In this document: one piece after another, positions 43,569 to 45,310 of the stretch | Numbering within the stretch: position 1 is the first letter of the stretch | Layout of the letters: each line of letters begins with the position of its first letter | NCBI GenBank assembly: GCA_009377435.1 | Contig: WHUC01000003.1 | Location: 1-51,264 of the forward strand | DNA from: Acidimicrobiia bacterium | Lineage (GTDB): Bacteria; Actinomycetota; Acidimicrobiia; Spongiisociales; ZC4RG35 | Direction: 5' to 3' | DNA length: 51,264 bases | Notes under the pieces: generated by a model | Database searches by the model: none | What the model was told of the DNA's origin: nothing | The model's input: the letters and a program-made list of their open reading frames with translations, nothing else | Made by a program: the position numbers and the translations under genes

Positions 43569-44624
43569 TCAGGAGGTGTGTTCCCCGGCCCGCATCTCGT
43601 GCTGGAGACGCCGCGACTCCTCGAGGACACGACGGAAGAGATCGGCGGCGTGCTCGGGCTCGAGCCCGTGATGGATCGCCTCCTTGCGGATGAGATCCAA
43701 CAGCTCCTCCTCCCGATCGGGTATCTGCACCGGCATTCCCCGGCGGAACTTGACCTCCCCGATCTGGAGGGCAAGCTGCTGGCGACGTCCCAGGAGTCGG
43801 ACGATCTGTCGGTCGATCTGATCGATGTTGGTCCTCATCCGATGGATCCCCAGTGCGGTCATGAGATCGGCGAACGGCACGAGTCCGAGCTGTTTGTCGG
43901 AGGACCGCGCGATCTCCGGTGTTGGATGGACCTCCACGATCAGCCCATCGGCACCCACGCCCTGGGCGGCGAGAGCGAGGGGGCGAACCCGCCCGGCGCC
44001 ACCGGCGGCATGGGAGGGGTCGACGATGATCGGGAGATGGGTGAGCTCGCGCAGCGAGGGTACCGACGTGATGTCCAACATGTCGGTGCGACCCGTGCCG
44101 AAGGTGCGGATGCCACGCTCGACGAGGATGACCTGATCATTGCCCTCGGCAAGGACGTATTCGGCCGACCACAGCCACTCGTCGAGGGTCGCCGAGGGTC
44201 CGCGACGGATCAGAACCGGTTTGCCGAGACGTCCCAGCACCCGGAGCAACTCGAAATCCTGCATGTTGGCCGATGCCACCTCGAGGGCATCGACCTTTTC
44301 GGCGACCTCCTCGGCGTGGGCCGCCTCGGTGACCTGGGTGACGGTGGGCAACCCAACACGTTTGCCGGCGGCGGCGAGCATATCGAGGGCCTCCGAGCCC
44401 AGGCCACGGAACTCGTACGGCGACGACGTCGGCTTGTAGGCATTTCCCCGCAGCAGCGACGCCCCGAACTCGACGGCGGCATCGGCGACGGTATTGATCT
44501 GGTCCTCGGACTCGATGGCGCACGGCCCGGCGATCACGGTAAAGGGATCGTGACCGATGCGAACCGAACCGATCGTGACGACGGTGGCCCCTCTATCGCC
44601 GTGGCGTTGTGCCTTACGTTCCAT
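43569..44624 (-). CDS. Type I-beta DAHP synthase-like domain fused to a C-terminal AroQ chorismate mutase
   Basis: IAGPCAIES, ERGIRTF, DPSHA and VEVHP; C-terminal R..ID.ID..I..LL..R...IG..K..RE; GAGGAG RBS. Confidence 0.9.
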   Translation of the reverse strand: MERKAQRHGDRGATVVTIGSVRIGHDPFTVIAGPCAIESEDQINTVADAAVEFGASLLRGNAYKPTSSPYEFRGLGSEALDMLAAAGKRVGLPTVTQVTEAAHAEEVAEKVDALEVASANMQDFELLRVLGRLGKPVLIRRGPSATLDEWLWSAEYVLAEGNDQVILVERGIRTFGTGRTDMLDITSVPSLRELTHLPIIVDPSHAAGGAGRVRPLALAAQGVGADGLIVEVHPTPEIARSSDKQLGLVPFADLMTALGIHRMRTNIDQIDRQIVRLLGRRQQLALQIGEVKFRRGMPVQIPDREEELLDLIRKEAIHHGLEPEHAADLFRRVLEESRRLQHEMRAGEHTS

Positions 44625-44741
44625 GATTTCTCCTCGATGGACGAGGCCCGGGACGTGGAACGACCCGGGCCTGGCCCGGGTCGACGTGGTTGGTGTGGTT
44701 GTCGTTTCAGCCCATCACGTCGACCGGGGCCCGGCCCCGGT
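44625..44741 (-). promoter_or_regulatory. Attenuator with mutually exclusive RNA hairpins
   Basis: Complementary segments 1:2, 2:3, 3:4 (44661-44683), 4:5 and an SD-covering CCTCG/CGAGG stem (44632-44646). Confidence 0.8.
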
Positions 44742-44774
44742 AAAGACGAAATAGGCGTAGAAACGATCGGACAT
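44715..44774 (-). CDS. Phe/Tyr-rich leader peptide MSDRFYAYFVFTGAGPRST
   Basis: 19 codons with 3 Phe and 2 Tyr in a 7-codon window, directly upstream of an aromatic biosynthesis gene; TAAGGT -10 box 8 nt upstream. Confidence 0.88.
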   Translation of the reverse strand: MSDRFYAYFVFTGAGPRST

Positions 44775-44881
44775 GTCCCATCACCTTAGCGCCCCATCGA
44801 GCGGATGGCTACGGAGGGTGGCGAGCGTCGACGACACCGGCATCGACCGCCTCACGGGGCCACGCCACCGCAGGACCCGTA

Positions 44882-45310
44882 TCAATCGGTCGGGTCCTCT
44901 TCGACGCACTTGCCGGTGATCTTGGCGAGTGCGGCTATCTCCTCGGGTGTCAGCCGGGAGAAGAACAGCTCGTTCAACCGATCGAGGTGGGTTTCCTGGA
45001 CCCGCTTGAAGAGCTCCATGCCGGTGTCGGTGATCGACACCGAGACCACCCGGGCGTCCCTGGTCGACGACGATCGCTCCACAAGACCCCGTGCCGCCAA
45101 CTCGGCGACGAGACGGGAGACCCGACTCTGGCTCAGTGGGGCGTGCGCCGCCAGATCGGTGATTCGCTGGGTCCCGCCCTCGGAGAACACGGCAAGGAAC
45201 AGCAACACCTCGAAACCACGGAGGCTGATCCCGTAACGGGCTCGGAGGTCGGCGTCGAGCAGATGCGAGATCCTCTCACCGTGGGGTCTGGAGGAATACG
45301 AACAGCCCAC
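44882..45310 (-). pseudogene. MarR-family regulator with an apparently damaged 5' end
   Basis: wHTH core FEVLL..LSQSRVSRLV..L..RGLVER..DAR..ITD.G; no convincing start or RBS; possible frameshift near 45284. Confidence 0.55.

Follow-up and report, generated by a model that had tools for sequence, protein, structure and literature searches.

The window, that is, the whole stretch of 51,264 nt that was analysed, comes from a MAG (2.25 Mb, 88% complete), and both the attenuator described here and the gene that it would regulate lie on its minus strand. This gene (43569..44624) encodes a fusion protein of 351 aa in which a family I, KDO8P-synthase-like DAHP synthase (PF00793 at residues 20-245, E 8e-59 in Pfam) is joined to a C-terminal chorismate mutase (PF01817, residues 264-342, E 9.2e-22 in Pfam). 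It is followed on the same strand by genes for a 3-methyladenine glycosylase and a GCS2-family glutamate-cysteine ligase and preceded, again on the same strand, by a MarR-family gene (45355-44882), which ends 108 nt before the leader ORF. An inverted repeat, GGACCCG ... CGGGTCC (44873-44897, minus strand), spans the stop codon of the MarR-family gene (TGA 44884-44882); it has no T-run and is possibly the end of the MarR-gene transcript. The nearest relative at the locus, L003, belongs to an 'Acidimicrobiia bacterium' MAG and has 87% protein identity. The window's own genome also contains a second, paralogous DAHP synthase gene (L002, contig C129:12376-13080, minus strand; 47% identity over residues 12-246), for which the Pfam scan covered the DAHP synthase part; no evident aromatic-rich leader was found within 400 nt upstream of it.

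The leader ORF, MSDRFYAYFVFTGAGPRST, has 19 codons and a stop codon (44715..44774, minus strand), runs from the ATG at 44774 to the TGA at 44715, and ends 90 nt upstream of the DAHP synthase-chorismate mutase gene. Read from the sequence, the codons at 44742..44762 (minus strand) are TTC TAC GCC TAT TTC GTC TTT, giving F Y A Y F V F; five of these seven consecutive codons specify Phe or Tyr, and the last Phe codon of the run directly adjoins the first of the pairing segments described below. The choice of codons fits the regulated gene, the product of which combines the entry into the pathway with the branch to Phe and Tyr. Another ORF, which starts with GTG in a different frame (44784-44707), is without conservation and was set aside.

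Eight nt before the leader ATG lies a -10-like hexamer of the TANNNT type, TAAGGT (44783..44788, minus strand), and a putative -35-like hexamer, TAGCCA (44806..44811, minus strand), is found 17 nt upstream of it. A TANNNT ending 6-11 nt before the leader start codon is present at 73 of 85 aligned loci compared with 11 of 423 control windows, and TTG-type motifs can be seen by eye in relatives at the matching -35 distance. Because of the spacing between hexamer and ATG, transcription would start at the ATG or within a few bases of it. The sequence therefore suggests that the leader mRNA is leaderless or nearly so; leaderless mRNAs are common in Actinobacteria (10.1101/834739). The SD-like AAGGTGA in front of the leader is more likely, to judge from these motifs, to be the -10 element than an SD. 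A sigma-70 consensus scan of the window region gave 0 promoters, so the argument for a promoter is based on the TANNNT pattern of actinobacteria. For annotation, the element marks a real gene of 19 codons, with a probable leaderless start, that gene callers have overlooked.

From the end of the aromatic run to the SD of the fusion gene, five segments (all on the minus strand) can pair in alternative ways. Segment 1 (ACCGGGGCC, 44733..44741) lies in the T-G-A codons of the leader and pairs with segment 2 (GGCCCCGGTCGACGTG, 44716..44731), which takes in two bases of the leader stop codon and can pair with either segment 1 or segment 3. A spacer that is C/A-rich and G-poor (44689..44714) separates the leader stop codon from segment 3 (CACGTCGACCCGGGC, 44674..44688), the partners of which are segment 2, in an antiterminator, and segment 4 (GGCCCGGGTCG, 44661..44671), in a terminator-type hairpin. 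The 3:4 hairpin is followed by a tail that is a decayed U-tract (TTCCACGT, 44653..44660) and by segment 5 (CCCGGGCC, 44645..44652), which is an alternative partner for segment 4. An anti-SD, CCTCG (44642..44646), overlaps segment 5 by two bases, and the SD region of the DAHP synthase gene, as read from the sequence, is CGAGGAG (44630..44636). The helices are as follows: 1:2 joins ACCGGGGCC (44741-44733) to GGCCCCGGT (44731-44723), with 7-8 bp given a real loop and -15.3 kcal/mol; 2:3 joins CCGGTCGACGTG (44727-44716) to CACGTCGACCCGG (44688-44676), with 12 bp, one bulged C and a duplex energy of -19.4 kcal/mol; 3:4 joins CGACCCGGGC (44683-44674) to GCCCGGGTCG (44670-44661), with -20.6 kcal/mol, and runs into TTCCACGT; 4:5 joins GGCCCGGG (44671-44664) to CCCGGGCC (44652-44645), with -21.6 kcal/mol; and in the SD hairpin, CCTCG (44646-44642) pairs with CGAGG (44636-44632) over the SD GAGGAG, with 5 bp and -7.2 kcal/mol.

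The 201-nt leader folds with -93.5 kcal/mol, as against -74.9 +/- 4.8 kcal/mol for 200 dinucleotide shuffles, none of which was as good (z -3.85). When the nascent transcript of the window was folded under constraints as far as segment 4, free RNA or a ribosome at the stop codon led to 3:4, and stalling at the last Phe codon led to 2:3; in these models, the window follows the expected attenuator logic. The geometry of the leader end varies: the stop codon is inside an extension of segment 2 in the window and a median of 14 nt past segment 2 in the relatives, where this distance means that 1:2 would re-form behind the ribosome.

Conservation was followed in the same order, where a protein search of 201 genomes gave matches with E <= 1e-60 in 176, a tally in which a shorter paralogue and two genomes marked as unpublished are counted; the matches listed at full length, chorismate mutase part included, came to well over a hundred places. 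The 91 orthologous loci that were compared consist of the window, L003, 29 loci from the protein search and 60 hand-picked full-length matches, which were selected to spread over families and are a non-random sample. A leader was taken to be an ORF of 8-40 codons with at least three aromatic residues in some window of seven, ending 40-140 nt before the gene. Such an ORF was found at 86 of the 91 loci and was missing at five (L028, L038, L040, L048 and L049). Every element listed in the original prediction is present in its place on the minus strand, and the layout recurs at these 86 loci. At L028, an aromatic ORF remains open, with no stop codon before the DAHP synthase start, up to position -1; a frameshift, an error in sequencing and a genuine fusion of the reading frames are all possible explanations. 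L046 is formally among the 86 and has a doubtful peptide; it was excluded, and the alignments therefore hold 85 sequences.

The pairs were counted in a MAFFT alignment (A1) of these 85 sequences. In helix 1:2, 91.6% of cells are paired and three of six pairs have changes on both sides; in helix 3:4, 98.5% of cells are paired and four of ten pairs have such changes (for example, G-C to A-U in nine sequences). The figures for helix 2:3 are 90.6% of cells, falling to at most 56.7% when the partner is slid, and three of seven pairs; its doubly changed cells number 57, compared with 27.0 +/- 4.4 for shuffled sequences, 0 of 500 being as high. Because the sequences are related, these statistics overstate the support and the independence of the changes. 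The sharing of segment 2 between two partners can be seen in four sequences where it is GCTCGGG: all four have CCCGAAG as segment 3, which keeps U-A in 2:3 and G-U in 1:2. Moreover, RNAalifold recovers 1:2 and 3:4 with no structure supplied. Covariation in relatives had been named in the original prediction as a way of checking it, and changes on both sides do occur in 1:2, 2:3 and 3:4. The observation is real and far above chance.

The peptides point in the same direction as regards the amino acids. Among the 1724 residues in the 85 aligned leaders, there are 244 F, 142 Y and 13 W; at least one Y is present in 83 of the 85 leaders and at least two F in 82, and W occurs in only 13. The codons used for these residues are TTT 112 versus TTC 132 and TAT 72 versus TAC 70, whereas the bodies of the DAHP synthase genes (11,918 codons) favour C-ending codons, with TTT:TTC 31:233 and TAT:TAC 11:75. 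This excess of T-ending codons in the leaders is compatible with two explanations, namely that slow decoding is selected for or that G+C pairing is avoided in the sensor stretch. In the conserved T-G codons, ACC GGG, the third positions are at least 90% invariant across the alignment, which points to a constraint on the RNA sequence rather than on the peptide; because of this invariance, the 'FTG' peptide motif is best read as RNA segment 1. It could still be proposed that the small ORF encodes a functional micro-protein with an F-T-G-P motif, the FTG(P/A) motif being highly conserved, or that the hairpins are a mere terminator at the end of the MarR gene, 108 nt upstream on the same strand, with no sensing, but both are scarcely credible, as the conserved nucleotides include third codon positions and form segment 1 of a covarying helix, the peptide varies freely in its N- and C-terminal parts but retains the aromatic run, and a promoter-like TANNNT lies between the MarR gene and the leader at 73 of the 85 loci.

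How the 3:4 hairpin acts depends on what follows it. At 73 of the 85 loci, the 9 nt that follow the conserved GGG at the end of segment 4 contain at least five T (3 T at 5 loci, 4 at 7, 5 at 17, 6 at 30, 7 at 18, 8 at 7 and 9 at 1). On account of this T-rich tail, the element family appears to be a classic ribosome-mediated transcription attenuator. The tail in the window (TCGTTCCAC; the sequence of the 3:4 tail is also given as UUCCACGU) has 3 T in 9 and falls in the lowest class, and a terminator consensus scan found 0 terminators there. The tail of L003, TCGTTTTGC, contains TTTT. When the truncated transcripts of relatives were folded at equilibrium, 3:4 was favoured even with a stalled ribosome (median probability 0.84), so antitermination would have to be kinetic, and equilibrium modelling of the termination decision, being uninformative for a kinetic switch, was abandoned. 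In the full-length RNA of the window at equilibrium, 4:5 is preferred to 3:4 even without a stalled ribosome, the probability of 4:3 being 0.02-0.06. As for transcripts, a 163-nt contig from an ice metatranscriptome matches 44496-44658, which comprises the 5' end of the gene, the SD, segment 5 and the tail, and stops just short of segment 4; its 7 differences indicate that it is from a relative. Three further raw-read RNA runs gave no matches to the locus.

The distribution of the element was studied with a covariance model, R1, built from the 85 sequences (124 positions, 16 pairs). In the window's own genome, R1 finds the locus at 76 bits, together with one weak match, which is a different (Cys) leader, and two matches with E above 0.2. 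In that genome, at L096 (contig C175:4419-4546, minus strand, outside the window), the ORF MTRRRATFCCCICTWCGRRA has five Cys in eight residues and is followed by a hairpin with a T-run; it is located upstream of genes for TusA (PF01206) and a DsrE-like protein (PF13686), and resembles the cysteine-sensing attenuators of mycobacteria. In a sample of 151 genomes from the class, 17 had a match with E <= 0.001, of which 16 belong to the window's order and the 17th is a tRNA-plus-terminator false positive. In a sample of 151 genomes from the phylum, eight genomes outside the order had weak matches of 30-35 bits. Seven of these were examined: three are bare terminators and four (L115, L116, L117 and L119, from four other families) are real look-alikes, with the leaders MERTYRYWFFYFGPGPA, MQRDFGFWFAYFGPGPG, MKGFFGFGWFYAGFGPA and MTQHRWFFGSYAPRGGPADVPAA. 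These leaders hold Trp besides Phe and Tyr, and they are followed by a terminator with a T-run and by a segment-5-like CCCCGGG; the genes encode DAHP synthases that start with MVVVM... and have a different extra N-terminal domain. On the basis of these four look-alikes, aromatic leader peptides before DAHP synthases extend beyond this order to other parts of the phylum.

Within the order, one genus has R1 matches at L111, L112 and L113 in front of an E. coli-like, unfused DAHP synthase gene (363 aa, PF00793), which is preceded by a TTGACA promoter-like box, by the leader MNVVRYSFFYFFGPSGSK or a variant of it, and by a TTTTTT-containing terminator. The fusion gene of this genus has a leader from which the aromatic run has disappeared, as in MNQLAVTRRYVVSFYDSAC at L046, and none was found at L040, L048 and L049.

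We consider it probable that the element is a ribosome-mediated attenuator by which the DAHP synthase-chorismate mutase gene responds to the supply of charged tRNA-Phe and tRNA-Tyr. A Phe/Tyr leader-peptide attenuator with mutually exclusive hairpins had been predicted, and this part of the prediction stands, with the gene now recognised as that for DAHP synthase and chorismate mutase. Transcription would probably begin at, or just before, the leader ATG, and a ribosome would translate the leaderless leader of 19 codons. With Phe and Tyr plentiful, the ribosome would reach the stop codon, segment 2 would be covered or taken by segment 1, and 3:4 would form; in most relatives, 3:4 together with the U-tract would then terminate transcription. 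With Phe or Tyr scarce, the ribosome would stall in the FYAYFVF run and cover segment 1 but not the 3' part of segment 2, whereupon 2:3 would form, 3:4 would be barred, and the polymerase would enter the gene. The freed segment 4 would next pair with the conserved segment 5, and, in the window, this 4:5 pairing would draw off part of the anti-SD and open the ribosome-binding site. Since the U-tract of the window has decayed, the share of regulation that falls to a translational layer is probably larger here than in most relatives.

The evidence for this layer comes from segment 5. A CCCGG(A/G)GC element follows the T-run at nearly all of the 85 aligned loci, and its pairing with segment 4 holds in 87.2% of cells, compared with 62-66% when it is slid by one column; the covariation is modest (two of nine pairs), and the median duplex energy across loci is -19.2 kcal/mol. 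Segment 5 cannot influence termination because it is downstream of the termination point. At 52 of the 85 loci, at least 20% of the predicted SD pairing goes to segment-5 bases, and masking segment 5 raises the mean predicted accessibility of the SD from 0.38 to 0.62. The native SD is less accessible than it is with a shuffled upstream sequence at 69 of the 85 loci (0.40 versus 0.52). A local model was also used, in which the RNA from segment 4 to +25 of the gene is folded with segment 4 either occupied or free. On passing from the occupied to the free state, the predicted unpaired SD increases from 0.39 to 0.80 in the window and from 0.20 to 0.64 in L003, the largest effects predicted; the family mean is +0.10, with a rise of more than 0.1 at 31 of the 85 loci, a fall at 9 and no change at 45, and among 46 representatives with less than 75% identity, 17 are up and 6 are down. 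An 'insulator' role, in which segment 5 would block the pairing of GCUCC in segment 4 with GGAGC in the SD, was rejected, the predicted 4:SD pairing being about 0 with or without segment 5.

An explanation that goes further in this direction is that attenuation at the locus is purely translational: the polymerase would always read through, 1:2 and 3:4 would form in the absence of a stall and leave CCUCG to close the SD, and a stall would bring about 2:3 and 4:5 and free the SD. The poor tail of the window, with its absence of a terminator in the scan, the opening of the SD in the local folding of the window and L003, and the conservation of a segment past the termination point would all be in keeping with this, and there is a precedent in the leaderless polycysteine sORFs of mycobacteria, which unmask a ribosome-binding site (10.1101/834739). 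However, the T-rich tail has been kept in 73 of the 85 relatives, and L003, for all its 87% protein identity, has TTTT. Moreover, the SD hairpin of the window, with its 5 bp and -7.2 kcal/mol, is not above chance, as its SD accessibility is 0.36 in the native state and 0.30 when the upstream sequence is shuffled. According to the whole-leader model, the unpaired SD of the window is 0.80 with a stalled ribosome and 0.55-0.57 otherwise, and that of the family hardly shifts at all (0.43 stalled, 0.39 with the ribosome at the stop codon and 0.37 free). The on/off model of two distant relatives gives 0.26 on and 0.69 off in L115, which is the wrong way, and 0.83 and 0.74 in L116, which is flat. A purely translational attenuator is consequently unlikely. 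The folding makes it plausible that translational control is a second layer of the ribosome-mediated attenuator, stronger in the window than elsewhere, rather than the mechanism of the family; it is the predicted opening of the SD on 4:5 pairing that gives plausibility to a translational contribution at the window locus. The proposal that the element acts on translation initiation, which was part of the original prediction, is thereby retained as plausible for the window, where SD opening is predicted, but is weak for the family, with its T-rich tails and small mean effect.

Another mechanism could be based on Rho, which would load on the C/A-rich, G-poor spacer after release of the leader ribosome. 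The E. coli tna operon is subject to Rho-dependent attenuation of this type. The composition of the spacer over the 85 loci (C 886, A 728, G 464, T 178), which could serve Rho or could equally reflect a spacer that is kept unstructured, and the window's want of a U-tract would suit such a mechanism, but the spacer, with a median length of 26 nt between the stop codon and segment 3, is short, and it is flanked by strongly conserved, covarying hairpins for which an intrinsic mechanism provides a full explanation. Rho-dependent attenuation is therefore very improbable here.

The ribosome-mediated attenuator might be extended to a relay of five segments, in which a stall on segment 1 leads to 2:3, then to 4:5 and then to an open SD. 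A single Phe/Tyr signal would thus set the termination of transcription and, subsequently, the translation of the finished mRNAs, the translational arm being the main control in the window's lineage. This we offer as a tentative proposal that may well prove wrong. If it were true, the gene would be shut off rapidly once aromatic amino acids returned, and the locus, read from a leaderless leader ORF, would represent a natural halfway stage between transcriptional and translational attenuation.

The logic of 1:2, 2:3 and 3:4, with the sensing codons just upstream of segment 1, is that of pheA (pheL) and trp (trpL) in E. coli, which are textbook leader-peptide attenuators and are represented among the Rfam leader families. 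Like these, most members of the present family have a putative intrinsic terminator. Unlike them, the element would sense Phe and Tyr together, its target is the first enzyme of the common pathway, it has a segment 5 and an SD-proximal hairpin, and its U-tract has decayed in the window. The trp leader of B. subtilis, where TRAP acts both on termination and on an SD-sequestering hairpin, offers another parallel: one signal would have two actions on one leader RNA, on termination and then, in the read-through transcripts, on a hairpin that sequesters the SD. The sensor there is a protein, TRAP, whereas here it would be the translating ribosome.

In the actinobacteria, the closest case is that of C. 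glutamicum, where the leader peptide aroR (Phe-Tyr-Phe), upstream of the aroF operon, is described as responsible for a Phe-responsive transcription attenuation in a review (PMC11802643; original work by Neshat et al. 2014); again, a leader with Phe/Tyr codons precedes a DAHP synthase gene in an actinobacterium, and stalling raises transcription. By description, the present element is set apart from aroR-aroF by its enzyme, a family I DAHP synthase fused to a chorismate mutase, by its occurrence in the class Acidimicrobiia, by its five aromatic codons in seven, by its apparently leaderless leader and by its conserved fifth segment. The aroF product of C. glutamicum is an E. coli-like unfused DAHP synthase.

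The leaderless polycysteine sORFs of M. smegmatis, which Canestrari et al. present as a Cys-sensing translational attenuation (10.1101/834739), resemble the present element in that a leaderless short ORF is the first cistron and a stalled ribosome prevents the formation of a structure that sequesters the ribosome-binding site. They differ from it, on the same account, in acting on translation only and in sensing Cys; here, the conserved core is a terminator-type hairpin with a U-tract, and control of the SD is at most a second layer. In M. tuberculosis, ilvB1 is subject to transcription attenuation via a uORF with a U-tract terminator (PMC13236596).

The original prediction listed Trp, Leu, Ile/Val and Cys as the amino acids of known actinobacterial attenuators, in agreement with a 2005 survey of actinobacterial RNA elements, which has nothing for Phe or Tyr (PMC1262725). 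Its suggestion that this one may be undescribed has to be divided. The concept is known, as the account of aroR-aroF in C. glutamicum makes clear (PMC11802643), and, among the papers listed in literature searches on leader peptides or attenuators of DAHP synthase or of Acidimicrobiia, that case was the only one; no paper listed for Acidimicrobiia had the name of the class in its text. In these searches, the family itself is without a match or a paper: Rfam 15, which includes the amino-acid leader families, gave no match at the gathering score, and the four sub-threshold hits were to unrelated miRNA and sRNA models on the other strand. The principle, then, is well known, and the conserved Acidimicrobiia version of it is uncatalogued. 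What is unusual in this version is the probably leaderless leader, the conserved fifth segment beside the SD and, in the window, the decayed U-tract, which may shift control to translation.

This analysis adds a well-supported and hitherto uncatalogued family of cis-regulatory RNAs to a poorly studied and mostly uncultured class, the Acidimicrobiia. To the extent that the response can be read from sequence, entry into the aromatic pathway would commonly be gated by tRNA charging in these bacteria. Finally, the combination of a segment 5 with a decayed terminator may provide a testable case of how transcriptional attenuators turn into translational ones.
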